From: Parcubacteria group bacterium
GTDB taxonomy: Bacteria; Patescibacteriota; Minisyncoccia; Moranbacterales; UBA11712
Length of the DNA stretch: 47,364 nucleotides
Direction of reading: 5' to 3'
Assembly: GCA_041662765.1 (NCBI GenBank)
Contig: JBAZRT010000001.1
Span: 1-47,364 of the forward strand
Under the pieces are notes generated by a model. That model worked only from the letters and a program-made list of their open reading frames with translations. It was not told the DNA's origin and did not search any database. This document shows, in pieces, positions 5,209 through 45,052 of the stretch. Position 1 is the stretch's first letter, and each line of letters starts with the position of its first letter. The position numbers were made by a program, and so were the translations under genes.

Positions 5209-5537
5209 GACGGGTGCCTTCTTGGTAGTGTGGTGGAATTCTGTGATTTCTATGCTAGCAAATTCCTTGATTTTTGTCCATACCAACGGCAGCGAAAATT
5301 TATTTGACCGCTCCTCACCATTTTTTGTCTTGCAGCTATTGAAAAATGTATTACAACATAAAAATGGTGAGGAGGTGAACTTATCCACAGCTCCCTGGTT
5401 TGCATTCCGCGTTTTTTTTTTGCTTTGATGGGTATAGAAATAAAAACGACAAGCGAAAGGGACAAATCAGGAGGTCTTTTTTCTTTGTGCAAAAATGAAA
5501 TAATAATGCTGATTTGTGAAATACGGTGCAAATCGAA

Positions 5538-5790: not shown

Positions 5791-6324
5791 ATGAAAAACA
5801 TAATCAAAAGTCTCGTGATTGTCTTCGCCGTCGCGGCAATTGCCGGAGGAGCGACATACGCGTACTTCAACGATTCAAAAACTATCTCCAATAACACCTT
5901 TTCAGCTGGAACATTAACTCTCGACGTGACTTCTGGCGGCTCGATTCCATTCAGCTTCACAAATATGAAACCGGGAGACACCGGCGATCAGACATTTACA
6001 ATTGCGAACTCAGGGACAATCAATGGAGCGCTGAGTTTGACTGCGTTCAATGTTACGAATACGGGTGGCAAAGACAGCGTTGGAAATCTTGGAGATGCGG
6101 TATTGGTAAGTTTTCTGGATTCAAGCAATAACGTAATTGTTTCGCCAATGACATTGAATAATTTGGCCGCAGCAATCAGTTCTCTACCACAGGCGCTTGA
6201 TAACCTAAATGCAGCCACTTCGATGACTTATAAATTGCATTGGGAGCTTCCTTCAGGTACAGGAAATGAAGTTCAGGGCGATAGCGCAGTTATGAATGCA
6301 ACATTGAATCTCCAGCAAATCTAA
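5791..6324 (+). CDS. TasA/camelysin-like secreted protein with a SipW-type signal peptide (177 aa)
   Basis: The N-terminus MKNIIKSLVIVFAVAAIAGGATYAYFNDSKTISNNTFSAGTLTLDV parallels the B. subtilis TasA pre-sequence (..GGGTWAAFNDIKSKDATFASGTLDLSA). MKPGD..TIANSG follows. Confidence 0.8.
   Translation: MKNIIKSLVIVFAVAAIAGGATYAYFNDSKTISNNTFSAGTLTLDVTSGGSIPFSFTNMKPGDTGDQTFTIANSGTINGALSLTAFNVTNTGGKDSVGNLGDAVLVSFLDSSNNVIVSPMTLNNLAAAISSLPQALDNLNAATSMTYKLHWELPSGTGNEVQGDSAVMNATLNLQQI
5839..5915 (+). repeat. 77-nt block identical to 6435..6511 (copy 1)
   Basis: The sequence attgccggaggagcgacatacgcg...cagctggaacatt is identical in both TasA-like genes. Flanking codons differ. Confidence 0.9.
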
Positions 6325-6386
6325 TAGCGATATCCTAATAAAAGGATATATTTAATTTAGAATAAAACTAGAAAGGAAGGTGAATT

Positions 6387-7037
6387 ATGAAAAGAATAAT
6401 CAAAAGTCTGGTGGTGGTTTTTGCAGTCGCGGCGATTGCCGGAGGAGCGACATACGCGTACTTCAACGATTCAAAAACTATCTCCAATAACACCTTTTCA
6501 GCTGGAACATTGAGTATTGAATTGGATGCCAATGGAATCGTTAATAATAATTCCACAACCCCAACATTACCTGTTTCACTCACAAATCTCTATCCTGGAT
6601 ACAACAGCGCAGATACGGGAAACTATTATTACCCAGCTGTTGCCAATACGGGATCGCTTGATTTCAATTGGAAATTTGGCTTAATTCAAACCTCCAATGT
6701 TCCTGGGCCTAATCATGGTAACCTTAATGATGTTCTCCAAGTAAAAATTGAGGAAAGCTTGGAAAATGGTGGGCCATGGGCCTATCCTGCTGGAGGATCA
6801 TTTAACTGCCAAAATTCTGTTATTTGGTCGCCCATTACCTATCCAAATACAACCAATGTGGTTGTATATGATGGAAATGTTTCCGCTTATTCAGGTGCGG
6901 TTGATATGGGAACATTGGCGCCTGGAAAAGGCAGATGTTATCGAATGAGTTTTAGTCTGGATTCTTCTGTTGGTAATCCCTATCAAGGTTCTAGCGCGGA
7001 ATACACGATCGGTGTTGACGCTGAGTCTATTCATTAG
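6387..7037 (+). CDS. TasA/camelysin-like secreted protein with a SipW-type signal peptide, paralog 2 (216 aa)
   Basis: Its signal and N-terminal module is nearly identical to the one at 5791 (MKRIIKSLVVVFAVAAIAGGATYAYFNDSKTISNNTFSAGTL). The mature part is divergent. Confidence 0.8.
   Translation: MKRIIKSLVVVFAVAAIAGGATYAYFNDSKTISNNTFSAGTLSIELDANGIVNNNSTTPTLPVSLTNLYPGYNSADTGNYYYPAVANTGSLDFNWKFGLIQTSNVPGPNHGNLNDVLQVKIEESLENGGPWAYPAGGSFNCQNSVIWSPITYPNTTNVVVYDGNVSAYSGAVDMGTLAPGKGRCYRMSFSLDSSVGNPYQGSSAEYTIGVDAESIH
6435..6511 (+). repeat. 77-nt block identical to 5839..5915 (copy 2)
   Basis: Direct comparison of the two gene starts shows the blocks are identical. Confidence 0.9.
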
Positions 7038-7063
7038 GTCGATAGGTTGATCCAATCTCTTTT

Positions 7064-7130
7064 CACTCCGCGTTTTTTACGCGGGGTGAGTAGAGCGAGG
7101 AATCACCGATGCAAAGCATCGGAATTTCCA
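7064..7130 (+). terminator. Two tandem hairpins, a possible partial terminator after the TasA-like genes
   Basis: CACTCCGCG/CGCGGGGTG (7064-7088) forms the first hairpin. CCGATGC-AAA-GCATCGG (7106-7122) forms the second and is followed by AATTTCCAATTTC. Confidence 0.4.
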
Positions 7131-7165
7131 ATTTCAAAATCCCAATTTCCAATAAAATAAAAAAA

Positions 7166-7366
7166 ATGGAAAAAATACCAGGAGATAAGCAGGAAGAAAT
7201 AGCGCCGCAAGAAAAGCCCAAAAAGAAAATGATCAAAATAATTTGTTCAGAATGCAAAGCTTATTTGGGAGAAAAAGAGGGAGTGGAGACCGACAGGGAC
7301 ATCACGCACAGCTATTGTGAAAAGTGCAAAAACGAAGCTTTAGCCGAGCTGGAGAAATATAAGTAA
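7166..7366 (+). CDS. Small zinc-ribbon-like protein (66 aa)
   Basis: The motif CSEC-x20-CEKC follows a K/E-rich N-terminus. The ORF lies between the TasA-like genes and sipW. The start is uncertain because no clear SD was seen. Confidence 0.45.
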   Translation: MEKIPGDKQEEIAPQEKPKKKMIKIICSECKAYLGEKEGVETDRDITHSYCEKCKNEALAELEKYK

Positions 7367-7378
7367 TTTTTTGGAACA

Positions 7379-7966
7379 ATGAAAAAAATCGCAAAAATTT
7401 TTAAGATTGCAATCAATACAATTCTCGTCCTGCTGGTTCTCCTGGGCGTGTTTGTCGTGTTCTCATTCGTGCCGTTTCCGGGAAACTACAAAGTTTTCAC
7501 CGTGCAATCCGGTTCCATGGAGCCGACGATTCACACCGGGAGCATGATTTTTGTGAAGCCGGAAGCGGATTATAACGTCGGAGACATCATCACCAAACGA
7601 ACAGATGATTCAAAGATGACAGTAACGCACAGAATTGTTTCAAAAGAAGAACTGCAGGGGAAAGTTGCGTTTGAAACGAAAGGTGACGCGAACCAATCGG
7701 CCGATGGAGAGAAATTCACCAAAGAGGGGATCATTGGAAAGGAAATTTTCAAATTGCCGTATATCGGTTTTCCGGTGGGATACGCAAAGACCACTCCGGG
7801 ACTCATTTTGCTCATCATTATTCCGGCGGTGATTATTGTTTATGACGAAATGAATAAGATAAAAGACGAGATCAAGAAAAAGATTGATTATCGAAAAAGA
7901 GCCAAAAAGAGAGAGGAAAATAGCATTATATCTGATGATATTGAAGAAAAAAAAGAGGAAATATAA
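7379..7966 (+). CDS. sipW: Signal peptidase I, SipW (archaeal/ER) type
   Basis: An N-terminal TM segment is followed by VQSGSMEPTIHTGSMIFV (catalytic Ser box), VTHRIV, and ETKGDANQSADG (the KGDAN box of S26B enzymes). There is also a C-terminal TM segment. Confidence 0.85.
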   Translation: MKKIAKIFKIAINTILVLLVLLGVFVVFSFVPFPGNYKVFTVQSGSMEPTIHTGSMIFVKPEADYNVGDIITKRTDDSKMTVTHRIVSKEELQGKVAFETKGDANQSADGEKFTKEGIIGKEIFKLPYIGFPVGYAKTTPGLILLIIIPAVIIVYDEMNKIKDEIKKKIDYRKRAKKREENSIISDDIEEKKEEI

Positions 7967-7976
7967 ATCCGTGATC

Positions 7977-10088
7977 ATGAAAAGGATACGTGCGTCCGCC
8001 AAAAAAATCGGACTGGCTTTGTTTGTACTTTTTTTGATCGCGAATTTGAACAAGGTTCATCCGACAGATTCAGCCTTCACTGACACGGAAACCAGCGCCG
8101 GAAACAATTTCATTGCCGGGACATTTGATTTGGAATTGGATTCCAGTGTTTTGATGAATATTTCTGATTTTCGGGCCGGTGATGCGGTTGTCGGAAGCGT
8201 CAAAGCCAAGAACGCGGGAAGCGCGGATTTGCAATATAAATTGAATTTTCGAAAAATTTCAGGCGATGACACGCTCTGCCATGGGCTCCAGCTCGAAGCC
8301 GACAAAAACGGTTCGCTGGCATATTCCGGGGCGCTCGACGGACTGAATTTCAACGCGGGGAACCTGGCCTCCGGCCATTCGGACGAATGGGATTTCGATG
8401 TTTCGCTTCCGTCCACGGCGCCCCCAGGCCTTGAGGGACTCCAGTGCAAATTTTCTTTCGTTTTTTCGGCCTGGCAGGCGGAACTTCCCGACGGTTCCAG
8501 CGGCTTTTCCGATTCGGATGATTTTTCGGAAAACTTGATTGGTTCCGGAGACTGGACAGTGCCGGTGATTCTTGACAATGACATCGTCAAGGTTGCAGGC
8601 ACCAAAGGAACAACCAACGGAACGCAACCCAAAGCGATTGTTACCTGGCATACGAATGAAATGGCGACTTCAAACGTTGTTTATGACGCCAGTAGTTCAC
8701 ATCCGAGCTGCTCTGCATATGCCTTTCAATCTCCAATGCCTGCCGATACAAGCGCCGACAACATCGCTCATTCAGTTGAATTGCCAAATCTCACTGCCGG
8801 GACGACATATTATTATAAAATCCAGACTTCCGACGCGAGTGGCAATGAAAAGTGCTCGACCAGTCATTATTTCACTGTTCCGGTCTCAGTTTCGGATTCG
8901 CCGACCGGAAATATAGTTCTGAACGAAATTGTTCCCAATCCTTCAGGAAACGAAGCTGGTCCGATGCCCGGCGGGGAGTGGGTGGAAATATATAACAAAG
9001 GGACGACTTCGGCCGACGATATGGAGCTTGCCGGTTGGACGATCTATGACCATACGTTGGCGGGCGGTGTTGCCATAACATCAATAAATACGAATACCGG
9101 AGCGACGACATTGACTCACGGGGCGTGGCTCGCGGTTTATATGAATAAATCTTATCTTAGCAATGACTCCGACACGGTATATCTCTATAACGGCGCTAAA
9201 GGAGATGCGGGCGTGACGTTGGTTGACAGTCACGTCTGGACCGCATCAATACCTGATGACAAATCCATTGCCAGATTTCCCGACGGAACGGGGCCGTGGA
9301 TCGATCCTGAAAACACGCCGGGCGAAGAAAATAAATTGGGAGAAAAAGAGCTTGCTCAGTTCAGGACGATGACTCTCGAAAAATGTTTTGATGCGGAAGG
9401 GAAAGTGAAAAAAAGCAAAGAAGATGTTTGCCAACCGGAATTTTTGGTTTATCTTGGAATGCTCGGGAACAAAAAAGACAAAATGATGGACAAGGATATG
9501 AGGGATAAGCTTTTGGAGCCGAACTCTCCGCCGAACCAGGAAGGGGACACGACCCAAATTTCAAATGGAGAAAAATCGGATTCTGATATTCCGCCGACTG
9601 ACGGCGATGTGAACCCGCCAGCGATAGATGAGCCAAAAATAATTTCCAAAGAATTCGATATAAACCTCAAAGGAAAATTGAACGCGCCGGACGGATTCGA
9701 AGCGAGCGCGGATCAGAAATTGCAAAAAATCAAGCTTTCGTGTGAGGAAAGTGTGATAAATGACTTGAAAGATTTCGAAATTGATCTTGCGAAGGTCAAA
9801 ATTGATAAAGTCGGTAAAATTGAAATTTTGGTTTCCGATTTGAATTTGCCGAAAGACGTGGATTTGGTCACAGCCAAAAAGGATGACACAGTTGTTTTGA
9901 TAACGACCAGCGAAAAGCCGAAAGAGGAACCGAAAAAAGAAGAAATCAAAAAGGCCGACGCGGATCTTCCCAAAGCGGACAGCTTGAAAGATGATCCGAA
10001 AAAAGACGATTCTGGCGGCAATGGCGACAGCAGTACGGGTAGGGGAAGCGATCCGGCATCGAAAAGTGTTGATTCGGCAGAAGCATAA
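7977..10088 (+). CDS. Large secreted protein (703 aa) with a SipW-type signal/TasA-like N-domain, an FN3/PAP-N-like domain, a lamin-tail domain and a K/E/D/P-rich tail
   Basis: The pre-sequence is MKRIRASAKKIGLALFVLFLIANL..SAFTDTETSAGNNFIAGTFDLEL. The next domain reads IVTWHTNEMATSNVVYD...TTYYYKIQTSDASGN. The LTD-like stretch reads LNEIVPNPSGNE..GEWVEIYNKG...LAGWTIYD. The C-terminus is low complexity. Confidence 0.7.
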   Translation: MKRIRASAKKIGLALFVLFLIANLNKVHPTDSAFTDTETSAGNNFIAGTFDLELDSSVLMNISDFRAGDAVVGSVKAKNAGSADLQYKLNFRKISGDDTLCHGLQLEADKNGSLAYSGALDGLNFNAGNLASGHSDEWDFDVSLPSTAPPGLEGLQCKFSFVFSAWQAELPDGSSGFSDSDDFSENLIGSGDWTVPVILDNDIVKVAGTKGTTNGTQPKAIVTWHTNEMATSNVVYDASSSHPSCSAYAFQSPMPADTSADNIAHSVELPNLTAGTTYYYKIQTSDASGNEKCSTSHYFTVPVSVSDSPTGNIVLNEIVPNPSGNEAGPMPGGEWVEIYNKGTTSADDMELAGWTIYDHTLAGGVAITSINTNTGATTLTHGAWLAVYMNKSYLSNDSDTVYLYNGAKGDAGVTLVDSHVWTASIPDDKSIARFPDGTGPWIDPENTPGEENKLGEKELAQFRTMTLEKCFDAEGKVKKSKEDVCQPEFLVYLGMLGNKKDKMMDKDMRDKLLEPNSPPNQEGDTTQISNGEKSDSDIPPTDGDVNPPAIDEPKIISKEFDINLKGKLNAPDGFEASADQKLQKIKLSCEESVINDLKDFEIDLAKVKIDKVGKIEILVSDLNLPKDVDLVTAKKDDTVVLITTSEKPKEEPKKEEIKKADADLPKADSLKDDPKKDDSGGNGDSSTGRGSDPASKSVDSAEA

Positions 10089-10129
10089 TCATTGTTAGGC
10101 CTTGGAAGCCAAAAAATATAAAATTCTGT

Positions 10130-11176
10130 ATGAAAAAAATATCAATTATCATTTGTATTTTGTCGCTGGGACTGTTTTTTGCTGCCAATACGGCAAACGC
10201 GGCGCCAGATACGCCAAGACTTGAAGTCGTGTCAAACAAGCCGTTGTTCAATGTGTCAGATGCTGCGCCGGGAAAAGCATACCCTTCTCCCGTCACAATC
10301 AGAAATCACGGAGATAATGAAGAAAATTTTCAATTTGAGGTGACGATAAACGCGGATCCGTCGATTTTGGCCGATCACTTGTTTTTCAAAATCAATAAAG
10401 TGGAAACATTGGATCCGGTCGCTGGGGAAAGTTGCGCGTATGATTGCGATGGTAACGTGACAATGTCCAGTCTCAACGGAAGGGAGATATTTGTCAATCA
10501 TATTCCTCCGCACAGCACGAATTATTTCCTATTTTATCTGGTATTTGATCCGGAATCAGGAACCGGCCTTATGGGGGAAACGATGAACTTTGATATGATA
10601 TTGGGATACGAGGATCAAGATGGAAGTCAAGAAGATGGAGCAAATGATAGCAATAACAACAATATCACGATATCAACCAACGCGAATCCGGGTTTTTTTC
10701 AGAGTGTTCAATCATTTATTGGAAATGTCAGCGGTGCTGAAATTTCCGGAGAACAGGTTGTAGGCGGAGAAAATCAAGACAATCCAATTGCGAGAGATGG
10801 TATTGTGAAGGGAGAAGAAGCCTCAAATTGCCAAGGCTGGCCGAAATGGGTCTGGGTTTTGATGCTGATCGCGTATTTCGCCGCGTTTTTGTGGCGGACT
10901 TTTGACAAAATCAAGCAGCAAATTGAAAAGCGGGACATTCGCCGGAAATGGCAGGCGGCGCTGGCGATCGTGGCATTTCTCATTTGGTATTTTTTCGACA
11001 AGTGCCGGGAGTTTTGGTGGTTTGTGATTTTGGCGATGATCGGCGGAGCAGTGATATATCTTCTTTATCTTTATTTGTTCAGGAAAAATATTCGAGAGGA
11101 GCGCGCGAAAGTCGAAAGCGGATCCGGCCAAAATGCTCCAAAAGATCCGACCAATCAAATTCCGCCGGCAGTCTAA
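10130..11176 (+). CDS. Secreted protein with a TasA-like beta-sandwich motif and three C-terminal TM helices (348 aa)
   Basis: It has the Sec-type signal peptide ..FFAANTANA/AP. The stretch FNVSDAAPGKAYPSPVTIRNHGDNEENFQFEV resembles the PGD..N.G motif of the neighbouring TasA-like proteins. The C-terminal hydrophobic segments are WVWVLMLIAYFAAFLW, LAIVAFLIWYFF and WWFVILAMIGGAVIYLLYLYLF. Confidence 0.6.
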   Translation: MKKISIIICILSLGLFFAANTANAAPDTPRLEVVSNKPLFNVSDAAPGKAYPSPVTIRNHGDNEENFQFEVTINADPSILADHLFFKINKVETLDPVAGESCAYDCDGNVTMSSLNGREIFVNHIPPHSTNYFLFYLVFDPESGTGLMGETMNFDMILGYEDQDGSQEDGANDSNNNNITISTNANPGFFQSVQSFIGNVSGAEISGEQVVGGENQDNPIARDGIVKGEEASNCQGWPKWVWVLMLIAYFAAFLWRTFDKIKQQIEKRDIRRKWQAALAIVAFLIWYFFDKCREFWWFVILAMIGGAVIYLLYLYLFRKNIREERAKVESGSGQNAPKDPTNQIPPAV

Positions 11177-11199
11177 GCAAGAAGAGAAAAAATTCAAAA

Positions 11200-11236
11200 A
11201 ACAACCCCATTCAGCTTTCAGCGGGTTGTTTTTTGT
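11200..11236 (+). terminator. Rho-independent terminator
   Basis: AACAACCC (11200-11207) pairs with GGGTTGTT (11223-11230) and is followed by a T-run. Confidence 0.6.
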
Positions 11237-11304
11237 TTGCTGTTTATTAGTCTAAGTGCTAAAGTTATCTTCAAAGAGGTCTAATTATCAATAAAATAAA
11301 AAAA

Positions 11305-11997
11305 ATGAAAAAAACGCTATTCGCATCACTGTTGCTTATTTTTGGATTGAGCTTTCAAGTTCAAGCGGCAAGCACAAATCCCAATCAAGGGGCAAAGCAG
11401 GGACAGGCTGGTTCTCAAGCCCAAGGCAGTCAAACTGGAAATACTGTTCAGACGGAAGAAAAAAACAAGGTGATGAACCGAGGAGAAAGCAATCAGATCC
11501 AGACCCAGGAGCAAAACGCAGTTCAAGCTCAGGACAGCGCCGCCAAAGACAACGCAAGCAATGGCAAATCCAGCTCCAATCCATCGATACAAAAAAGAAG
11601 CCAAGTGGCGAACGCCGTCCAAGCTATGCTTCAAATAGCCGACAGAAATAGTGGGATCGGACAGCAAGTCAGGGTTATTGCCCAGAATCAAAACCAAAAT
11701 AAAATAAGGTTGGAACAAAACGTCGAGAAAATTCAAAGAAAAAGCGGATTTGCAAAGTTTTTCATGGGACCAAATTTCGGAGAAATAAATGACGCTCAAA
11801 AAACATTGGAGCAAAACAAAGAGCAGATTCGCCAGCTGAACCAAATCAAAACCCAGCTTTCCAACGAGGGTGATCAGCAGCAGCTCGCTGAGCAGATCAG
11901 AGTTCTGGAACAATCCAATCAAGAGATTGAAACTTTGCTTGCCGGCGCACAAGGCGGATTCAGTCTGTTTGGCTGGCTGAATAAGCTGATTTCATAG
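11305..11997 (+). CDS. Secreted Q/N-rich coiled-coil protein (230 aa)
   Basis: The signal peptide is MKKTLFASLLLIFGLSFQVQA. A Q/G/S/N-rich low-complexity region follows, then a heptad-like Q/E/L region. Confidence 0.6.
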   Translation: MKKTLFASLLLIFGLSFQVQAASTNPNQGAKQGQAGSQAQGSQTGNTVQTEEKNKVMNRGESNQIQTQEQNAVQAQDSAAKDNASNGKSSSNPSIQKRSQVANAVQAMLQIADRNSGIGQQVRVIAQNQNQNKIRLEQNVEKIQRKSGFAKFFMGPNFGEINDAQKTLEQNKEQIRQLNQIKTQLSNEGDQQQLAEQIRVLEQSNQEIETLLAGAQGGFSLFGWLNKLIS

Positions 11998-12503
11998 GAC
12001 AAAAATTTATTTTCATTTCCAATGGTTGACTGGAAATTATAATTGGATCAGGAAAGAATATATCTAAAAGGCGGAAAAAGAGATGCTATTTTTCTGGGAT
12101 GTATTCTGGGCGAAAAATTTGCCCAATTTGCAACTCTATGCCGGAGTTGTGCTGATCAGTTCTTTCTCAAAGATCATCGGAATCTCCCTTATTTTGATCA
12201 AAATTTTTGGCGCGTCAACCTAGGAGGATTGGCCAGCAAACATTTTATATCATCTCCGAAGGAGGTTCGCTATGGCAGGCAAGCAGTATGACGGCTTTAT
12301 TATTTTTTATTCATCGGCGGGTTGGCAACCATAGTTTGGCTTCCGGCAAAACAGGGCTGCAAAAAAGTGGCTGATTTTTTCCGGCAGCTTGCGGATGTGG
12401 CAATCAATCGGGCCATCTGGTCTTTGGTCGGCCGGAAGCTGATGTGAACGCGCTTTTTTTTCTGAAGTTGAAAGTCCCGAGTTCCAAGAAATTTGGGCGA
12501 GGC

Positions 12504-12538
12504 GAGGGGTGCAGAAGTCGTGCGCTCCTCTTTTTTTT
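12504..12538 (+). terminator. Rho-independent terminator closing a short non-annotated transcription unit
   Basis: GAGGGGTGC (12504-12512) pairs with GCGCTCCTC (12522-12530) over 9 bp, two of them G-U. TTTTTTTT follows. Confidence 0.6.
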
Positions 12539-12547
12539 GAAACAGCC

Positions 12548-12576
12548 TTGATCATTTTCGAAAAAGAAAGTAAGAT
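12548..12576 (+). promoter_or_regulatory. Sigma70-like promoter (TTGATC-N17-TAAGAT)
   Basis: The -35 lies at 12548-12553 and the -10 at 12571-12576, about 45 nt upstream of the 74-aa ORF. Confidence 0.45.
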
Positions 12577-12622
12577 GATATGAAACAAAAAATGCTGAAA
12601 AAGTAGGGAGGAAAAAACGGGG

Positions 12623-12847
12623 ATGTATATTTTGCCAGAGAGATATTCTTTCTGCAGGCAGTTCTTCAACCGCGGGCGCTGGCACATCAAGGACATACAG
12701 ACCAATGGAAGCGGTCTCTCGGTGCTTCCACTGTGCAGCGTCTCGGGAAAATTCCAATTCAATAAGTCCGAAATCGCTTTGGCGAGGCAGATTTGCCCGG
12801 TGTGTCTCAAAATTGCGAAAGAATCGGGAATCATTCCTCAAAGCTGA
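12623..12847 (+). CDS. Small Cys-containing hypothetical protein (74 aa)
   Basis: The ORF has the SD GGGAGG 9-10 nt upstream of the ATG, its own promoter and a strong terminator. It contains C11, C38 and CPVC (58-61). Confidence 0.5.
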   Translation: MYILPERYSFCRQFFNRGRWHIKDIQTNGSGLSVLPLCSVSGKFQFNKSEIALARQICPVCLKIAKESGIIPQS

Positions 12848-12867
12848 AAACAAAATTCGGGGGAGGC

Positions 12868-12904
12868 AAAGGGCGCGATCAACATCGGTTGCGCCCTTTT
12901 TTAT
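12868..12904 (+). terminator. Rho-independent terminator
   Basis: AAAGGGCGC...GCGCCCTTTTTTATTT: the stem GGGCGC/GCGCCC is extended by G-U/A-U pairs and followed by a T-run. Confidence 0.7.
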
Positions 12905-12931
12905 TTCTCCAGAAAACAGGAATTTGCCAAA

Positions 12932-12966
12932 TAAAAAAGCCGGGGTTTCCTCGCGAAAACCCCGGC
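12932..12966 (-). terminator. Rho-independent terminator (minus strand), convergent with the previous one
   Basis: GCCGGGGTTT (12939-12948) pairs with AAACCCCGGC (12957-12966). The - strand reads the hairpin followed by TTTTTTAT. Confidence 0.7.
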
Positions 12967-13011
12967 GTACCATCTCTTTCCCTGGAGGGGGATCCAGAGG
13001 AGAGAAAATCA

Positions 13012-13173
13012 TCATTTCGGCTGGGCAGCTTTTTCAGCTGCTTGAAGGAGCAGTTGATACTCGAAATTATCCATGTTCCGCTCACTCATTTGAGCCATGG
13101 TCACGAGGGAGTATATGACCAAACCCAGAAGACCGCCCAGGATGATCCCCGGAAAGATTAATGCCGTTGGCAT
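13012..13173 (-). CDS. Small membrane protein (53 aa), below the ORF-track cutoff
   Basis: The ORF reads MPTALIFPGIILGGLLGLVIYSLVTMAQMSERNMDNFEYQLLLQAAEKAAQPK. An AGGAGA SD lies 7 nt upstream of the ATG (cat at 13171-13173). The stop tca is at 13012-13014 and a terminator lies downstream. Confidence 0.45.
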   Translation of the reverse strand: MPTALIFPGIILGGLLGLVIYSLVTMAQMSERNMDNFEYQLLLQAAEKAAQPK

Positions 13174-13557
13174 GCTCGCTCTCCTAAAAATAAAATAACT
13201 GCATTTCTATTGGCGCTATTATATCACAGAGATAAGTCATTGTCAAATTGACGGCCGGAAATTCTTCGCATTTTTTCACAATTCGGAATTTAGCCAATAT
13301 GAACCAGGAAGGGTATGATGAGGCTAGTCGTCTAAATAATAAAAAACATCAACAGTTCTGCTTCCAGCGGGGCTGTTTTTTTGATTTGCGAATATTGGAG
13401 CGGATTTCAGATTTGTCAAAATTGCATAATGGCTTATATAAGGCAAAATAATTGTTTTTTCGCTTTTTTTACTTGACTTATTTAAAAAGGAGTGTTACAA
13501 AAATACGAAGTCCTTTGACAACTTCATGTTATAAATTCCCATAAGGATGGTGCAAAT

Positions 13558-14649
13558 ATGCGTCTATCACGGCTTTTGGATTGGAGGTGGTGGTTCGGCC
13601 TCAGGCCGAAATTTGCCATCGAACCGCCGGTCGCGAAGTATTCAATTACTATTGTCGTGCCGGCCTACAACGAAGAAGATTCAATAGGCGCCACCATCAG
13701 CAACCTGAAATTGCAGACGGTTCCGATTGAGGAAATCATCGTGGTTGATGATTGCTCCTCGGATGGAACCGGCGAAATTTCCAGGGAAATGGGCGTCACC
13801 GTTATCCGGACTCACAAAAATCAGGGATCAAAGGCGATGGCCCAGAATTATGTCATTCCGCAAATCGTGTCCGATCTTATCGTGACAATTGATGCGGATA
13901 CGATTCTGGCGCCGGATGCCATTGAGAAAACATTGCCCTGGTTCAACAGCCCGAAGACGGCTTCCGTATGCGGGTTTGTTATTCCGCAAAAAGTGGAAAC
14001 CCTTTGGGAAAGAGGGAGGTTTATCGAATACGTATTTGGCATATCGCTCCATAAGAGAGCCCAGCAGAATATAGGGCTGGTTATGGTTTCCTCCGGCTGT
14101 TTTTCCGTCTTTCGCACGGAACTGCTCAAGATGATGGGCGGTTTCGACGCGAGGACAATGGCCGAGGATATGGATCTCACTTGGAATTTCCTGCTCGAGG
14201 GATATGAGATCTATTGCGAGCAGACGGCCTATTGCTATCCGTTCGATCCACCGACGCTCAAAATATTCGTCAACCAGATCGACCGATGGTACCGGAGCTT
14301 TTTCCAGAACGTTTCCGTTCACAGCTTCAGAAAAAACAAGGGGCTGGGAATCATGATCTATGGATACCTCCTGGAACCGGCACTGGCACCGATTCTTGCC
14401 GTTGCGTTTCTCACGACGATGAAGTGGAATTTCTGGTGGCTAATCATGCTGGCCGCCGCTATCGATCTGACGATCGTGGCGATCCCGTGCCTCATCAAAG
14501 GCGCGGTTACCGGCATGACTGGAAAAGTTTTGACCTCCTTGCCGGCTTATTGGGTCATAAGATTTGTTAATATCTATGTCTTTTGGCGGTCCTTCTGGAG
14601 AGAGTGGATCATCAAAGACAAACTCAACAGCTGGAACAAGGGTCACTGA
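13558..14649 (+). CDS. Processive family-2 glycosyltransferase (PgaC/IcaA/NodC/cellulose-synthase-like synthase)
   Basis: Motifs seen are VVPAYNEE, VVDDCSSDGT, TIDADT (DxD), TMAEDMDL (ED) and VNQIDRWYRSF (QxxRW). C-terminal TM helices are present. The gene is GC-rich relative to its flanks. Confidence 0.85.
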   Translation: MRLSRLLDWRWWFGLRPKFAIEPPVAKYSITIVVPAYNEEDSIGATISNLKLQTVPIEEIIVVDDCSSDGTGEISREMGVTVIRTHKNQGSKAMAQNYVIPQIVSDLIVTIDADTILAPDAIEKTLPWFNSPKTASVCGFVIPQKVETLWERGRFIEYVFGISLHKRAQQNIGLVMVSSGCFSVFRTELLKMMGGFDARTMAEDMDLTWNFLLEGYEIYCEQTAYCYPFDPPTLKIFVNQIDRWYRSFFQNVSVHSFRKNKGLGIMIYGYLLEPALAPILAVAFLTTMKWNFWWLIMLAAAIDLTIVAIPCLIKGAVTGMTGKVLTSLPAYWVIRFVNIYVFWRSFWREWIIKDKLNSWNKGH

Positions 14650-14683
14650 AGTCTCAACCGCGAAATCAAAGAAGGAAAAAGTT

Positions 14684-15793
14684 ATGAGAAAGTGGATGTT
14701 GGTTTTGGCTTTGGCGGCCGCGTTGATGATTCCATCCGCGGCCATGAGCGCTCCGGCTCCGAAGGAAATTATCTTGGGAAAATCGAAGATCATTGTGCCG
14801 CCAGGCGCTTTGGTCGGCGCTCAGGTTGACCGGGTCACCCGCGATACCACTCTGCCTGATGGCAGTGATCTCAAGAACGCCTATCCCTTCCGGGTTGTCA
14901 CCGACAAGTCCGGGCTGGTTACCTACATGGAAGGCCGCCTGGCCGGCCAGCTGATTGATTACGCCAAAGTCCAGGTCGTAGGCCTGGGACCGGCGTATGC
15001 CAAATTAGTGGGCGAAACGGGCGACTTCTACACTGAAGACGGCGCCGGGAATTTCAAGTTCAGAGTGGATCCGTCCAAACTGAACTATTCCTCGGTGCTG
15101 TATGCCGACAAGCGGTCTTTTGCCGTGATGATCGACACCCACGGTTTCAACGCTGTGGCCGCACCGGCAATTCACCTGGCTCAATTGTCCAAGAAGAAAC
15201 TCAGCCTGGTGATTGCCTGCATGGACCTGCCTTCGAAAGCTGAAGCGGCCCTGTTTCTGGCCCAAAACGGCATCAACTGCTACGGGCCCTGCGACCTTTT
15301 CGGATCCCAGATCGTCGGCTACAAGAAAGACAATCCCAATGCCGCGACAGTCCTGGGGACCGCCCCTATCCGCAAGCTCAAAAAGGGCGGAGCGGTGATT
15401 GGGAATCAGTCGGTGCGTATCGCGCTGGCTGAAGAGATCGTGGTCCAAAAGACCGACAATGCCAAATATCCGGACCAGTACTGCGACGCGCCCTACAACT
15501 ATTTTCGTGCCGTGCAGGAAAAGCTGGGACTGGCCTTGAAGCTCACTCCCGTTGTGGCCACCATCGGCCAGACGGATAAGTTGGTCGCCAAAGCCAAAGA
15601 AGTCGGCGCCCAGGTGATTGGAGTGAGAGTCCTGAACGAAAAGGACGCGGCTCCGATCGCGGCGTGGCTCAAAGAAAACCCCAAAAATCGGGCCATTCTT
15701 TTTCACTCGGCTGCTTATGAGCCGGGCTATGACCTGTTTTTCCAATTCCCGAAGCAGACCAGCTTTGGGGACCTCAATCCACAAGTTCTGTAG
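14684..15793 (+). CDS. Secreted/periplasmic hypothetical protein (369 aa)
   Basis: The ATG at 14684 is preceded by GAAGGAAAAAG. The signal peptide is MRKWMLVLALAAALMIPSAAMSA. No recognisable motif was seen, and codon usage matches the island. Confidence 0.65.
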   Translation: MRKWMLVLALAAALMIPSAAMSAPAPKEIILGKSKIIVPPGALVGAQVDRVTRDTTLPDGSDLKNAYPFRVVTDKSGLVTYMEGRLAGQLIDYAKVQVVGLGPAYAKLVGETGDFYTEDGAGNFKFRVDPSKLNYSSVLYADKRSFAVMIDTHGFNAVAAPAIHLAQLSKKKLSLVIACMDLPSKAEAALFLAQNGINCYGPCDLFGSQIVGYKKDNPNAATVLGTAPIRKLKKGGAVIGNQSVRIALAEEIVVQKTDNAKYPDQYCDAPYNYFRAVQEKLGLALKLTPVVATIGQTDKLVAKAKEVGAQVIGVRVLNEKDAAPIAAWLKENPKNRAILFHSAAYEPGYDLFFQFPKQTSFGDLNPQVL

Positions 15794-15809
15794 TCAGAGG
15801 GGGTAAACG

Positions 15810-16295
15810 ATGAAGAAGGCAAGAAAGTGGCAATTTGTTGCGTTGGCGTTTGCGGTCATGTTCTTTCTGGCCGGCAGTGTTGCCATCGCAGGGGAAACTT
15901 ATCCCCAATTTCCCTGGTCCACCTGGGGCGAGGTATCCCAAACCATCGCGGGCAAGGATAATCCCGGGTTCAAAGCGGATGGGTATCTCGAGCAAGGTAT
16001 CGATTGGACGAAGTTCGGCAGCAGCTCGAAGTTCAGTCCGGTCCTCAATACCTTCGTGGGTTTCCGCTTCACCGCCAGCAATCACCCTGAGTACTGGTGG
16101 GACAACAAGCTCGGGCCTTGGTTTGGCGCCAAGCTGAAGTGGGATGTAAACCCCTATCCCGGAGCCTGGGGCCAGATCGCCCTCGGCATTCGCGGCGAGT
16201 ACTATACGTATTTCAGTACCGTCCGCGATCGGCCCTACAGCAACGACCTTCGCTGTGTCGCCTTTCTCCAATGGTCTTTTGGCGGCAAGTGGTAG
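15810..16295 (+). CDS. Small outer-membrane beta-barrel-like protein (161 aa)
   Basis: It has a signal peptide (..FFLAGSVAIAG). Amphipathic strands alternate along the sequence (FVGFRFTAS, WFGAKLKWDV, IALGIRGEYYTYF, RCVAFLQWSF). The C-terminus FGGKW is aromatic, as in OMP beta-signals. Confidence 0.55.
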   Translation: MKKARKWQFVALAFAVMFFLAGSVAIAGETYPQFPWSTWGEVSQTIAGKDNPGFKADGYLEQGIDWTKFGSSSKFSPVLNTFVGFRFTASNHPEYWWDNKLGPWFGAKLKWDVNPYPGAWGQIALGIRGEYYTYFSTVRDRPYSNDLRCVAFLQWSFGGKW

Positions 16296-16310
16296 GCGGG
16301 GGAGGCAGGC

Positions 16311-16910
16311 ATGTACAAGGGTAAAAGCGGATTATGCGGAACGGTAGCGCACGTGCTCCTCGCCTGTCCCATCCTGGCGGTGGTTCTGGGCGTGGGAGGT
16401 GCGGCACTTTACGTGAAATCTTATATCCGCGGGCAGCCTCCTCCTTATACGGTGGAGGTAACCGCCCAAAAGATCATGGCAGATCCTGCTTTCCAGGCCA
16501 AAGTTCGGGAGACTGAAAAAGTTCCCGGAGCCAGGGAGCTGACTGATGAGGCCGAAAAGGTCTTTCAGGGGATCGTTATGGTCGAAAGCGGAGACAAGGA
16601 GATCGGCGTCCATCCAGACGGCGTATCCCACGGTCCGGCGGGTCTCACCCTGCCGGCTCTCAAAGACGTGCATCGGCTGGTCTGCAATTCGAGCGAAAAG
16701 CTCGATTATCAGGCCATCCTGAAAAATCCGGTGGAGAGCAGGAAGTTTGCCAAGCTCTACTATCTGGAAATGGTGCACCGCTTTGGGGACGTGAAAACCG
16801 CGGCCATTGCCTATCACCACGGACCCACCCGGGTCTCGCGGTGGATAAGGCAGCACAAGTCTCTGCCGGATAGCTACTGGAACAAAGTCCAGGAGGCGAT
16901 GGGCGACTAA
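16311..16910 (+). CDS. Membrane-anchored SLT-domain lytic transglycosylase
   Basis: An N-terminal TM segment is followed by MVESGDKE (catalytic E-S), HGPAGLT and AIAYHHGP (AYNxGP-like). The SD is GGGGGAGG. Confidence 0.7.
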   Translation: MYKGKSGLCGTVAHVLLACPILAVVLGVGGAALYVKSYIRGQPPPYTVEVTAQKIMADPAFQAKVRETEKVPGARELTDEAEKVFQGIVMVESGDKEIGVHPDGVSHGPAGLTLPALKDVHRLVCNSSEKLDYQAILKNPVESRKFAKLYYLEMVHRFGDVKTAAIAYHHGPTRVSRWIRQHKSLPDSYWNKVQEAMGD

Positions 16911-16954
16911 CGGCCGTCCAAGAAAAGAGGAGGGAAAAGAAGCAAAGAAGTTCT

Positions 16955-16987
16955 GGCGGCATCACGCAATTCGATGCCGCCTTTTTT
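16955..16987 (+). terminator. Rho-independent terminator
   Basis: GGCGGCATC (16955-16963) pairs with GATGCCGCC (16973-16981) and is followed by TTTTTT. Confidence 0.8.
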
Positions 16988-17007
16988 AAACTTAAAAAAA
17001 CGCACAC

Positions 17008-17036
17008 TTGACAAATTGAAGACAATATATTACGAT
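17008..17036 (+). promoter_or_regulatory. Sigma70-like promoter (TTGACA-N17-TACGAT)
   Basis: The -35 lies at 17008-17013 and the -10 at 17031-17036, upstream of the BamD-like gene. Confidence 0.55.
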
Positions 17037-17115
17037 TAGCTGTTCGTTGAAATCGGCACAACGCTTAGAAATGGCAATTTTGCCAATAACGTTGAAAGAA
17101 TAGGAGATATTGCTC

Positions 17116-17742
17116 ATGACTAAGGTGGGGAAAATCAGGTTTTTGGCCGTGGTCTTTGCTCTGCTTCTTTGCTGGGGCTGTGGCGGGATGAGTTTCAGCT
17201 CCAAGCCGGAAGCGTCCAGCACTGAAGTCTTTGGTCCGATGCCAGCGGAACAGCTTCTCAAGATGGCCGAGGACCGCTTCAAGGCTGGCGACTATTTGGC
17301 CGCCATGCGCGCCTATGACGCGTTCGAAAAGGATCATCCCGGGAGCCAGCTCATGCCATTTTGCGTTTTCGGCCGTGGTCTCAGCTATATGCACGAAATG
17401 GAGACCATCGACCGCGACCAAGCCATGTGCCGCAAAGCCGCTGAGCAGTTTCAGCGGGTCGTGGACCGGTATCCGGATTGGAAGTACACGGCTGATGCGA
17501 AAGCGCATCTCAAAAAGTGCCGTGGCAACCTGGCGGAACACGAATTTTATGTGGGCTCCTATTATCAGCGGACCGGGCGCTATCGGGCCGCATTGGTTCG
17601 CTACCAGGGACTTGCCCGGGATTATCCGGAGTTCACCAAAGGAGCCGAAGTCAAAAAAGGCATCGCGGAATGCGAAGCCGAACTGGCCAAGGCGCCAAAG
17701 CCAAAGGGATTGATCGCCCAGCTCTTCGATGCCCAGTGGTAA
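17116..17742 (+). CDS. BamD/YfiO-like TPR outer-membrane lipoprotein (208 aa)
   Basis: The AGGAGA SD precedes the ATG at 17116. A lipobox-like LLLCWGC-GG is present. TPR-like repeats include AEDRFKAGDYLAAMRAYDAFEKDHPGS, AAEQFQRVVDRYPDWKY..DAKAHL and EHEFYVGSYYQRTGRYRAALVRYQGLARDYPEF, a typical BamD signature. Confidence 0.75.
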   Translation: MTKVGKIRFLAVVFALLLCWGCGGMSFSSKPEASSTEVFGPMPAEQLLKMAEDRFKAGDYLAAMRAYDAFEKDHPGSQLMPFCVFGRGLSYMHEMETIDRDQAMCRKAAEQFQRVVDRYPDWKYTADAKAHLKKCRGNLAEHEFYVGSYYQRTGRYRAALVRYQGLARDYPEFTKGAEVKKGIAECEAELAKAPKPKGLIAQLFDAQW

Positions 17743-17771
17743 AAGACAAGAAGTTCTTTTTGAGCAAAACC

Positions 17772-17807
17772 GAACCCCGATGCCGAGCATGGGGGTTCTT
17801 TATTTTT
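17772..17807 (+). terminator. Rho-independent terminator
   Basis: GAACCCC (17772-17778) pairs with GGGGTTC (17792-17798). An inner ATGC/GCAT helix is present, and CTTTATTTTT follows. Confidence 0.7.
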
Positions 17808-17882
17808 CCTGCTTTTTTTGGCGGGTTGTTTTTTTGGTTGATTTTTGATAGAATATTTCAAGTCGAAGCAATATTACAACAA

Positions 17883-18153
17883 GCCGTTGTAGCTCAGCTG
17901 GCAGAGCAACTCCATGGTAGGCAACTGCCCATAGGCGGAGAAATCCGTCAATGAATCCCGAATCACGGTTAAAGGCCCTAGCCGGGTCAAGACCGTAGCG
18001 CTTTCTTGGCGCTCGAACGACTGACAAGGGGAGCTAAATTTGTCAATTGGCAAATATGTTCAAGATACAGTCTAATCCTCTTATATGGTTGAATAACAAA
18101 AAAAGAGGTATAAATGAAGGAGTAGGTCCGCGGTCCGAATCCGCGCAACGGCT
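17883..18153 (+). tRNA. tRNA-Thr(GGU) interrupted in the anticodon loop by a 198-nt intron
   Basis: The 5' exon is GCCGTTG-TA-GCTC-AGCTGGCA-GAGC-A-ACTCC-ATGGT (17883-17918). The 3' exon is AA-GGAGT-AGGTC-CGCGG-TCCGAAT-CCGCG-CAACGGC-T (18117-18153). Acceptor, D, anticodon and T stems all pair. The spliced loop is AUGGUAA. Confidence 0.75.
17919..18116 (+). ncRNA. Group I-like self-splicing intron (no ORF)
   Basis: The 5' exon ends in U and the intron ends in G. The helices found are:
- P2: GGCGGA-GAAA-TCCGTC (17934-17949)
- P3: TCCC (17956-59) with GGGG (18028-31)
- P4: ACGGT (17965-69) with ACCGT (17992-96)
- P5: GGCCC/GGGTC
- P6: AGCGC/GCGCT (17997-18013)
- P7: GACTG (18019-23) with CAGTC (18068-72)
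- P8: ATTTGTC-AATT-GGCAAAT (18038-55)
- P9: CCTCTT/AAGAGG (18077-18108)
The order P3-P4-P5-P4'-P6-P7-P3'-P8-P7'-P9 is the group I topology. Confidence 0.6.
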
Positions 18154-43786: not shown

Positions 43787-45052
43787 ATGGCATTATTCTC
43801 CAAAATATTTCGCAGGCGAAGCGGGACCGGGTACGCGCTGGCTCTTGATATTGGAACAGAGGTAGTGAAGGCGCTTGTTTTCAAAATTGATGAAGAGGCG
43901 GAAAAAGGAATCGTTGTCGGTGTCGGCCGGGTACATCAAAAATTGGGAGACATGCAATCGGGAGCGGTCAGTGATATATCGGGCGTTGTTTCATCCTGCG
44001 AACGGGCTATTGCGGCGGCTGAAGAAATGGCCGGTGTGAAAAGAGTGGAACAGGCGATCATCGGGATCGCCGGGGAGCTTGTGAAAGGATCAACCACCAC
44101 AGTCCACTATGAAAGATTGAAGCCGGAAGTCCGAATCGATCTGCCGGAGCTCAAGAATATCGTCCAAAAAGTGCAGTGGAAGGCATTCGACCGCATTCGG
44201 CAGCAGCTTGCTTGGGAAACGGGACACAATGAGATCGATGTGAAGCTCATCAATGCCGCGATCGTGGACGTTCGTATTGACGGCTATCGCGTGACAAACC
44301 CTCTCGGATTTCAAGGACGCGATGTTTCAATCGGTATTTTCAATGCTCATGCGCCAATGGTGCATTTGGGAGCGCTTCAGACCATCGCTGAAGAGCTTGA
44401 TCTCGATCTTTTGAGCATTGCTGCCGAGCCCTATGCGGTTGCTCGTTCGATGGGCCTTGAAAATGCTGTTGATTTTAGCACTATTTTCATTGATATCGGG
44501 GGCGGAACGACTGATATTGCTGTGGTGCGCGGCGGTGGACTCGAGGGAACGAAGATGTTCGCGCTTGGCGGGCGAGCCTTCACAAAAAGGCTGGCGCAAG
44601 AATTGAATATCAATTTCGAGGAAGCGGAACTTCTCAAAATCAGATACGGACGATCCGAACTCGGACGCGAAGTTTCTTTGAGGCTGGAAAAAATATTTGA
44701 AGAAGATTGCCAGGTATGGCTTGATGGCGTGGAGCTTTCTCTTTCCGAATACGCCGAGAATGACCTTTTGCCCCCAAGAATTCTTCTCTGCGGAGGCGGA
44801 TCGGCTCTCCCGGGCATAAAAAAAGTTCTTCTGAGTCCCGGATGGCTCAAAAATCTCTCTTTTGCCAAGCCGCCCAATGTCAGTTTTCTGCAGCCCAAAG
44901 ACGTTGTGAATATATCGGATGCGACCAGTCTTCTTCGTGATCCGCAGGATATCACCCCGATGGGGCTCGCCAATCTGGCGATCGATTTGGTTGGAGAAGA
45001 AAAAGCTCTCTCCGCGATGCTGCGGCGAGCCGTAAAAATGATGCAAAATTAA
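43787..45052 (+). CDS. ftsA: Cell division protein FtsA (actin-like ATPase)
   Basis: Motifs seen are ALDIGTEVVKALVF (phosphate 1), FIDIGGGTTDIAVV (phosphate 2) and LCGGGSALPGI (adenosine). The C-terminal amphipathic helix is LSAMLRRAVKMMQN. Confidence 0.8.
   Translation: MALFSKIFRRRSGTGYALALDIGTEVVKALVFKIDEEAEKGIVVGVGRVHQKLGDMQSGAVSDISGVVSSCERAIAAAEEMAGVKRVEQAIIGIAGELVKGSTTTVHYERLKPEVRIDLPELKNIVQKVQWKAFDRIRQQLAWETGHNEIDVKLINAAIVDVRIDGYRVTNPLGFQGRDVSIGIFNAHAPMVHLGALQTIAEELDLDLLSIAAEPYAVARSMGLENAVDFSTIFIDIGGGTTDIAVVRGGGLEGTKMFALGGRAFTKRLAQELNINFEEAELLKIRYGRSELGREVSLRLEKIFEEDCQVWLDGVELSLSEYAENDLLPPRILLCGGGSALPGIKKVLLSPGWLKNLSFAKPPNVSFLQPKDVVNISDATSLLRDPQDITPMGLANLAIDLVGEEKALSAMLRRAVKMMQN

Follow-up and report, generated by a model that had tools for sequence, protein, structure and literature searches.

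The TasA superfamily is now considered to include TasA, AbpA, AbpX, the threads, the cannulae and the tafi, and the loci that encode its members often specify a TIGR02228 peptidase dedicated to the system, along with minor subunits, anchors and proteins of the tip (bioRxiv 10.64898/2026.01.04.697558). In Bacillus subtilis, where the system is specified by the tapA-sipW-tasA operon, the donor strand of TasA corresponds to residues 28-38 and its deletion disrupts the fibres (PMC9674648). In the haloarchaeal tafi, a scheme obtained from AlphaFold models distinguishes TafC as tip, TafE as adapter, TafA as shaft, TafF as terminator and TafD as peptidase (PMC11821415). Here we analyse a 47,364-nt window of DNA from a Parcubacteria group bacterium (contig JBAZRT010000001.1, forward strand, to which all position numbers refer), in which six genes, A to F, occupy positions 5791-11176 of the + strand and form a real conserved operon of a Moranbacteria-type bacterium of the candidate phyla radiation (CPR)/Patescibacteria. 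It is rather probable that this operon builds a thin TasA-superfamily surface fibre, anchored in the membrane and assembled by donor-strand exchange, and the system is best regarded as a bacterial counterpart of the Bacillus and archaeal fibres and not as a new kind of machine. Proteins of the PF12389 family have previously been noted in Patescibacteria (PMC9245690), and a search of the open-access literature found no paper describing the cassette in CPR bacteria.

All seven open reading frames (ORFs) reported for the region, A to G, were confirmed on the + strand. The genes of the operon and the RNA elements lying between them are as follows:

5791-6324, + strand: gene A, 177 amino acids (aa), TasA-like with a SipW-type signal peptide, likely shaft subunit
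6387-7037, + strand: gene B, 216 aa, TasA-like paralog, second shaft or adapter subunit
7053-7101, + strand: conserved RNA stem-loop motif CAAUCUCUUUUCACUCCGCG-loop-CGCGGGGUGAGUAGAGCGAGGA, 15 nt past the stop codon of B
7099-7129, + strand: second hairpin with a CCGAUGC-AAA-GCAUCGG core, specific to this window
7166-7366, + strand: gene C, 66-aa cytoplasmic CxxC..CxxC zinc-ribbon protein
7379-7966, + strand: gene D, 195-aa S26B (ER/archaeal-type, SipW-like) signal peptidase I
7977-10088, + strand: gene E, 703 aa, proposed tip or initiator
10130-11176, + strand: gene F, 348 aa, proposed acceptor-only terminator and anchor

A first-pass annotation of this DNA had recognised two small TasA/camelysin-like proteins, a zinc-ribbon protein, a SipW-type S26B signal peptidase and a 703-aa multidomain protein with the same type of pre-sequence, and these identifications hold. 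The small proteins A and B lie above the curated cut-offs of both relevant models: A matches the Pfam family PF12389 (Peptidase_M73) with 69.4 bits (4.6e-19; cut-off 22.5) and the SipW-cognate signal peptide model TIGR04088 with 38.1 bits (1.2e-9; cut-off 19), and the corresponding values for B are 36.0 bits (8e-9) and 35.5 bits (7e-9). Cleavage of A is predicted between ..GGATYA and YFNDSKTISNNTFSAGTL. An AlphaFold2 (AF2) model of A based on a 22-sequence alignment displays a confident beta-sandwich at residues 44-176, with a predicted local distance difference test (pLDDT) score of 77-94 in the core, and leaves residues 1-37, which comprise the signal peptide and the strand segment, disordered in the monomer. 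The TasA-like fold expected for the small subunit was recovered when this model was compared with the PDB by Foldseek, as its top match is the TasA fibre 8AUR (E 2.4e-6, TMq 0.59), with 5OF1 listed too, followed by the Sulfolobus threads and then by donor-strand-complemented Fim/Pap/CFA pilins, which likewise polymerise by donor strands. In addition, the A-family profile (A1), whose alignment also includes B, aligns to TasA 5OF1 end to end (7e-9), from the N-terminal strand through the C-terminal motif GNxxQG..F..F.L.Q, and matches AbpX 9SJ2 as well (7e-6). In A, B and E, as in TasA, 14-15 residues precede the AGTLxL strand, and this N-terminal segment is conserved in the A-family alignment in the manner of the TasA donor strand. 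The bodies of the shaft subunits are merely 26-35% identical among relatives, as expected for exposed subunits.

The two paralogs have an unusual relationship to each other. The first 42 residues of B are almost the same as those of A, its body is 26% identical to that of A, and the best match to this body is paralog 2 of L010 (the related loci used for comparison are labelled L001-L018). At the nucleotide level, a 77-nt stretch at 5839-5915 in A is identical to 6435-6511 in B, both on the + strand, and encodes the cleavage site together with the donor-strand segment, while the codons on either side of it diverge, synonymous positions included. The identity is not a general property of the family, given that the paralog pairs of four other loci have at most 14 identical nt in common. 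A recent gene conversion of the 5' end is the likely cause.

The assignment of D as a SipW-type peptidase is based on its match to the archaeal-type signal peptidase I model TIGR02228 (114.9 bits, 3e-33; cut-off 51.85) and on its alignment to human SEC11A, in which Ser46, His84 and Asp103 of D occupy the catalytic positions within the motifs SGS46MEP and TH84R. The protein has hydrophobic helices at its N- and C-terminus. Its strict co-location with TasA-like genes across 13 loci suggests that D would be the enzyme that cuts the neighbouring precursors. Gene C, read from the ATG at 7166 inside the ORF 7109-7366, contains the cysteines C27, C30, C51 and C54 and no hydrophobic segment. No Pfam or NCBIfam family matches it, and its weak matches to assorted zinc fingers were dismissed as compositional. 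Homologues of C are found at the same position in L004, L005, L010 and L015 and in the closest relative; the CxxC..CxxC core is kept in those four loci and the MEKIPGD start in L004 and L005.

The large protein E combines a signal peptide, ending in SA, with the donor-strand motif FTDTETSAGNNFIAGTFDL and with an N-terminal match to PF12389 (30.1 bits, above the cut-off of 22.5), and is not detected by the TIGR04088 model despite carrying FTDTETSAGNNFIAGTFDL. It contains a complete TasA-like domain, covering family profile positions 3-193, followed by two domains identified with Pfam, Pur_ac_phosph_N/FN3-like at 216-300 and lamin-tail domain (LTD) at 308-422, and by a C-terminal tail of 280 residues rich in K, D, E and P, whose weak match to ribosomal L25/TL5 was dismissed as compositional. 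E-like proteins with the donor motif and the LTD are located at the same position in at least 11 loci, and every one of them keeps both elements. In several of these proteins other domains stand directly after the strand, making them TapA-like.

F matches no Pfam or NCBIfam entry. Its family comprises 17 sequences with 38-73% identity (43-73% among closer relatives), and a profile-profile comparison by hhalign related this family to the TasA-like one with 97.1% probability (E 5.5e-11), the common motifs being PLFxVxNAAPG..N.G and the C-terminal GNxFQ..FDM. The alignment begins only at the AGTLxL strand, after the donor segment. In agreement with this, the signal peptide of F is of the ordinary AxA type (ANA before the cut, AP after it) and leaves about 5 residues before the AGTLxL strand, and the A1 hidden Markov model matches all 14 F-like proteins only from profile position 26 or later, the donor strand being absent. 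Since this segment is missing from F and residues 28-38 of TasA are the donor strand, F is therefore interpreted as an acceptor domain that has no strand to give. The first-pass annotation had described F as a TasA-motif protein ending in three transmembrane helices, and both the TasA-like domain and the C-terminal helices stand. A SipW-type pre-sequence is carried by A, B and E only and is lacking in F and G. The proposal made there of a tip (703 aa) and an anchor (348 aa) fits the finding that the donor-strand motif occurs in all of the LTD proteins and in none of the membrane proteins, which is what those putative roles would predict. In the AF2 model of F the ectodomain has a pLDDT of 70-88, the linker at 162-237 is disordered and three helices extend over 239-329, and its PDB neighbours by Foldseek are N-truncated CanA (1.6e-4) and the TasA fibre (3.9e-4), then Fim/Pap pilins.

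The C-terminal half of F deserves separate consideration. Its linker is of low complexity, N/G/E/Q-rich here and Gly-rich in relatives, and the three-helix membrane module that follows is nearly invariant and more conserved than the ectodomain. The loop and the tail predicted to be cytoplasmic carry the positive charges, and two invariant cysteines, C234 and C292, both predicted to face outward, may form a disulfide. A search for the F family returned 1,893 representative clusters from a library of 1.84 billion proteins; among its distant relatives, cluster look-ups yielded almost no names. The module (..C-Q-S-W-P-K-W..FDKCREF..) is also found at the C-terminus of adhesin-like proteins of 1175-1424 aa, and the Moranbacteria proteins that end in it and contain HYR, SdrD_B, SpaA-type and thrombospondin domains measure 1175-1909 aa (L016:245-4519, L017:4578-8489 and L018:4824-8351, and also P0058, P0084 and P0093). 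As it ends proteins of this kind it behaves as an anchor, and it seems to be a lineage-specific one for surface proteins.

The cassette is not peculiar to this window. More than 13 independent Moranbacteria/Parcubacteria loci present one common gene order on one strand. A single TasA-like gene or a pair of them comes first, followed in about half of the loci by a C-like gene; next is a D-like peptidase, then an LTD protein that has the donor motif, and last an F-like membrane protein. Conservation is high for F and D. Homologues of A and F come almost only from metagenome-assembled genomes (MAGs) of Candidatus Moranbacteria/Moraniibacteriota, Parcubacteria and unclassified Patescibacteria. Some relatives are named 'TasA family protein' at NCBI, and at JGI relatives bear the name 'ribosomally synthesized peptide with SipW-like signal peptide'. 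In one locus (L002:3387-9040) a set of type IV pilus genes (T2SSE, T2SSF and N_methyl pilins) is located immediately upstream of the cassette; the BsaA protein of Clostridium perfringens reportedly depends on secretion associated with type IV pili. In a Moranbacteria MAG (L001:13787-20609) the cassette is followed by a gene whose product, of 3,515 aa, contains VWA, SpaA-type and CLIPPER domains, and giant adhesin genes seem to cluster with fibre operons.

Compared with the B. subtilis system (8AUR, 5OF1), the operon shares PF12389 subunits with a TIGR04088 signal peptide, a dedicated Ser/His S26B peptidase with two membrane helices, an N-terminal segment corresponding to the TasA donor strand 28-38, and an accessory protein with a donor-strand-like N-terminus, TapA there and E here. 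It differs in that the subunit genes come first, whereas in Bacillus they come last, in the presence of two shaft paralogs, in a tip that has FN3-like and LTD domains instead of the TapA fold, in the membrane-integrated acceptor-only subunit F, which Bacillus does not have, and in the zinc-ribbon gene and the conserved 3' hairpin. With the tafi (PMC11821415) it shares a four-part logic, the resemblance being one of architecture only: both have a tip in which a donor strand is combined with an adhesin-like domain, a pair of small subunits and a Ser/His peptidase of their own, and in both the terminal subunit has a Sec signal peptide and an acceptor domain of about 140 aa and ends in membrane helices. 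Unlike the tafi, the system described here is bacterial and of Sec type, its peptidase has 2 membrane helices instead of 4, a DUF5305 partner is missing, an LTD takes the place of the laminin-G domain in the tip, and the integral three-helix anchor module, the zinc-ribbon gene and the RNA motif are features of its own. The AbpX/AbpA bundling pili and the AbpX-like bacterial loci likewise belong to the TasA superfamily and include a TIGR02228 peptidase and minor, tip and anchor proteins (bioRxiv 10.64898/2026.01.04.697558; PMC9245690). However, the AbpX-linked peptidases have about 10 membrane helices, and the anchors of the AbpX-like bacterial loci are SLH or LPXTG wall anchors and not an integral membrane module.

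A further parallel is offered by the chaperone-usher pili of Gram-negative bacteria (Fim, Pap), which also depend on donor-strand exchange of Ig-like subunits, with a tip adhesin, many shaft subunits and a special terminator (PapH), and whose pilins are among the structural neighbours of the A and F models. These pili are unrelated in sequence to the system described here, which has no chaperone, usher or outer membrane, and while PapH terminates by a groove that is not exchangeable, F would do so for want of a strand to give. Other export and assembly routes were considered and rejected. Tat export does not fit the lack of a twin-arginine (RR) motif in the first 20 residues of any of the proteins A-G. 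A sortase pilus was discarded because A-G contain no LPXTG-like motif and no sortase was found among the 37 window ORFs covered by the Pfam scan, and a type IV pilus because the same 37 ORFs include no N_methyl prepilin signal and no PilB/PilC-type gene. The only type IV pilus-like match is an FtsA/PilM-like actin-fold protein at 43787-45052, which matches FtsA best.

At the RNA level, the region behind the shaft genes presents a marked secondary structure. The two hairpins at about 7057-7129 fold with a minimum free energy of -41.4 kcal/mol (z -4.86), and none of 200 shuffled sequences folds as well. The motif at 7053-7101 is unique in the window, and a generic repeat or terminator of the genome was rejected for this reason; no Rfam family matches the hairpins. 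In every related locus a strong hairpin starts a few bases past the last TasA-like stop codon. The ten hairpins that follow these genes fall into sequence classes that cannot be aligned jointly, and they were analysed by per-class alignments and a covariance model. The first class, to which 7053-7101 belongs, has 15 pairs with 5 compensatory changes among four loci, and the second class has the same shape. A covariance model derived from the first class (R1) gave eight + strand matches with E below 1e-6 in the 295 kb made up by the window and the related loci, and a weaker ninth at L001 9853-9901 (E 3e-4). Every R1 match lies directly after a TasA-like gene, including matches after the first of two paralogs, and elsewhere in the 295 kb the only matches are reverse-strand echoes. 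The R1 alignment, which was fitted to the model and somewhat favours the pairing figures in this way, has 96.6% of its cells paired, compared with 45-69% in slid controls, and its covariation score is not reached by any of 500 shuffles.

The association of the motif with TasA-like genes extends to metagenomic sequences. The hairpin core pattern matched 44 metagenome contigs, 5 of which carry the full flanked motif; in four of these five enough sequence precedes the motif, and in all four a TasA-like ORF ends no more than 20 nt away. The other 39 are bare core matches due to chance, which served as a negative control, and in none of them does a TasA-like ORF end there. Among the related loci, a hairpin of the first class follows the first paralog at L005:6007-6053, L007:4569-4618, L010:4267-4316 and L001:9853-9901. 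After the second paralog, a hairpin of the second class (GAUCACAUCUC..) is present in L005, L007 and L010, and the first class appears again in L001 (10612-10658). The occurrence of these hairpins after both paralogs indicates that each subunit gene has its own 3' stem-loop. The first-pass annotation had taken the tandem hairpins as fitting higher expression of the major subunits. Of that suggestion, the first hairpin proved to be conserved, covarying and specific in position, whereas the second one, 7099-7129, has no counterpart in the related loci. The hairpin at 7053-7101 may raise the expression of the shaft subunits.

These observations can be brought together in a scheme grounded on family membership, predicted fold, the catalytic residues of D, gene order, RNA covariation and the distribution of the strand motif among the proteins, from which we infer cleavage by D, polymerisation and its polarity, the roles of tip and anchor and what the hairpin does. 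In essence the scheme is the one put forward for the haloarchaeal tafi. A, B and E would be exported by Sec and cut by D after ..A-T-Y-A or ..D-S-A, which would free an N-terminal strand of about 15 residues equivalent to residues 28-38 of TasA. E would start the chain by inserting its strand into the first shaft subunit, which would place it at the distal tip. A subunit of type A or B, on receiving a strand, would release its own to the next one, until a strand enters F, where the chain would stop, as F would provide the groove domain and no strand of its own. F would then be tied to the membrane by its flexible linker and its three helices. The stem-loop after the shaft genes would lower read-through or stabilise the upstream mRNA, so that shaft subunits may outnumber D, E and F.

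Several points weigh against this scheme. The TasA equivalog model NF046066, with a cut-off of 450 bits, is missed by A (31.7 bits) and by B (17.6 bits), and D reaches 113 bits with the Bacillus SipW equivalog NF046067, under its cut-off of 190; the three proteins are therefore regarded as distant relatives and not as TasA/SipW orthologues. The AF2 model of F is mediocre (mean pLDDT 61), and the F profile has no direct match among PDB sequences. E has a full groove domain for which the scheme offers no occupant, and, to judge from one window, D need not be the sole peptidase for A, B and E. The hairpin motif lacks a U-tract and hence is not a canonical intrinsic terminator; a role in partial termination, in processing or in stabilising the 3' end is therefore suggested.

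Among the alternatives, the operon could produce TasA-like matrix fibres that are released unanchored, with F acting as a membrane assembly factor that, for example, holds cut subunits by their free strand near the peptidase. TasA itself is secreted, forms fibres in the matrix and can be provided externally (PMC9674648), the authors of the tafi study also consider 'non-finalised' released chains (PMC11821415), and a membrane module more conserved than the ectodomain hints at specific protein contacts and not at passive anchoring. This possibility is nonetheless judged unlikely, because the module of F is also the C-terminus of large adhesin-like proteins, in which a chaperone function would be hard to understand, because its long disordered linker is typical of a wall-spanning spacer, and because an acceptor-only domain is what a chain terminator needs. 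Little credence is given to a second proposal, in which A, B and E form no fibre: they would be secreted or exposed on the surface without polymerising, as simple adhesins or as proteases of the camelysin type, and would have in common no more than a special signal peptide cut by D. It is true that PF12389 is named after camelysin, described as a metalloprotease (PMC9245690), that the JGI name of the relatives refers to a peptide with a SipW-like signal, and that polymerisation is deduced here from sequence features. Against this, no HExxH or other metal site is present and A contains one His and no Cys; the N-terminal segment is conserved like the TasA donor strand, the structural neighbours of A are fibre subunits, and a pattern in which E has the strand and F lacks it across loci would be purposeless without strand exchange.

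A covalent polymer held by intermolecular isopeptide bonds, as in C. perfringens BsaA and sortase pili, in place of donor-strand exchange alone, appears very improbable. A does match the BsaA family model TIGR04090 weakly (2e-4), and BsaA is reported to be SipW-dependent and to form isopeptide bonds (PMC11580942). The match, however, amounts to 21.1 bits and is far under the cut-off of 60, the seven proteins and the scanned ORFs offer neither LPXTG nor sortase, and the best structural match of A is the TasA fibre. As far as computation goes, the interpretation given in the first-pass annotation, a TasA-type fibre put together by donor-strand exchange, is supported, the family searches and the fold prediction that it called for having given the results it expected, with cleavage by D and donor-strand polymerisation as the steps that we infer.

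The operon probably ends shortly after F, and a further secreted protein is encoded beyond that point:

11219-11242, + strand: terminator-like hairpin with a T-run, after F, probable operon end
11305-11997, + strand: gene G, 230 aa, secreted, Q/N-rich (17% Q), C-terminal domain conserved

The first-pass annotation had counted the Q-rich G among the components of the system, an assignment that was abandoned, since G sits after the terminator-like hairpin, where it has its own promoter-like site, and outside the conserved cassette. Outside this window, L007 and L010 are the two loci in which a G-like gene adjoins F. In the closest relative it lies three genes away, and two genes (one of 357 aa and one for a 349-aa caspase-like Peptidase_C14 protein) stand between F and the G-like gene. 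To judge from this arrangement, G is a separate unit and a neighbour, not a core part. Its C-terminal domain of about 110 aa (..RSxxxxFLxGxxY..IRxLxQ..QIR..SLFGW..) is common to L007:9258-10748 and L010:9029-9877; the L007 protein, as delimited by a simple ORF caller, has an N-terminal sequence resembling a RelA/SpoT-type synthetase. A weak match of G to Bd0108 (E 0.011, under the cut-off) was dismissed as compositional.

Downstream of G, about 1.5 kb (11998-13557) contain no convincing ORF and may represent a decayed or rearranged region; no Rfam family matches the ORF-poor stretch 11950-13600. A single sub-threshold Rfam miRNA match at 5307-5380 was taken as noise. Two GC-rich islands, at 14001-18000 and 28001-30000 (0.54-0.57 against about 0.44), were possibly acquired horizontally. 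The former encodes a GT2 glycosyltransferase, two proteins without a family match and an SLT lytic transglycosylase, and the latter lies inside a gene (27759-30041) whose secreted product of 760 aa has a Pro-rich tail and matches no Pfam family. The remainder of the window, 19292-47364, is devoted to cell-envelope biology and carries a tRNA-Trp gene, a MacB-type ABC exporter with an HlyD-like adaptor, Wzz/Wzy-like proteins, several GT4 transferases, rhamnose-pathway enzymes, an L,D-transpeptidase and FtsA.

Attachment to other cells is the presumed mode of life of CPR/Patescibacteria, and it is mainly type IV pili that have been tied to it so far. A more ambitious view of the locus, which we put forward tentatively and as a possibility, is that it specifies a monoderm, chaperone-free counterpart of the chaperone-usher pilus in CPR bacteria: a Sec/S26B fibre with an LTD tip adhesin and a fast-evolving shaft, in which the strand-less F would stop growth and fix the fibre through a lineage-specific anchor shared with giant adhesins, and in which subunit ratios would be set by a previously undescribed 3' stem-loop. 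The locus would give CPR bacteria a conserved second fibre system, the tip, the shaft and the anchor of which are separately amenable to expression and testing, and would extend to bacteria the tip/shaft/terminator scheme modelled so far only for the archaeal tafi. The natural pair of subunits with and without a donor strand is useful for testing how TasA-type fibres start and stop, and annotators may profit from the anchor module shared with giant adhesins and from an RNA motif specific to subunit genes. If the fibre is indeed made, and if these ultra-small bacteria use it to hold host cells, it would constitute a second attachment organelle beside type IV pili.

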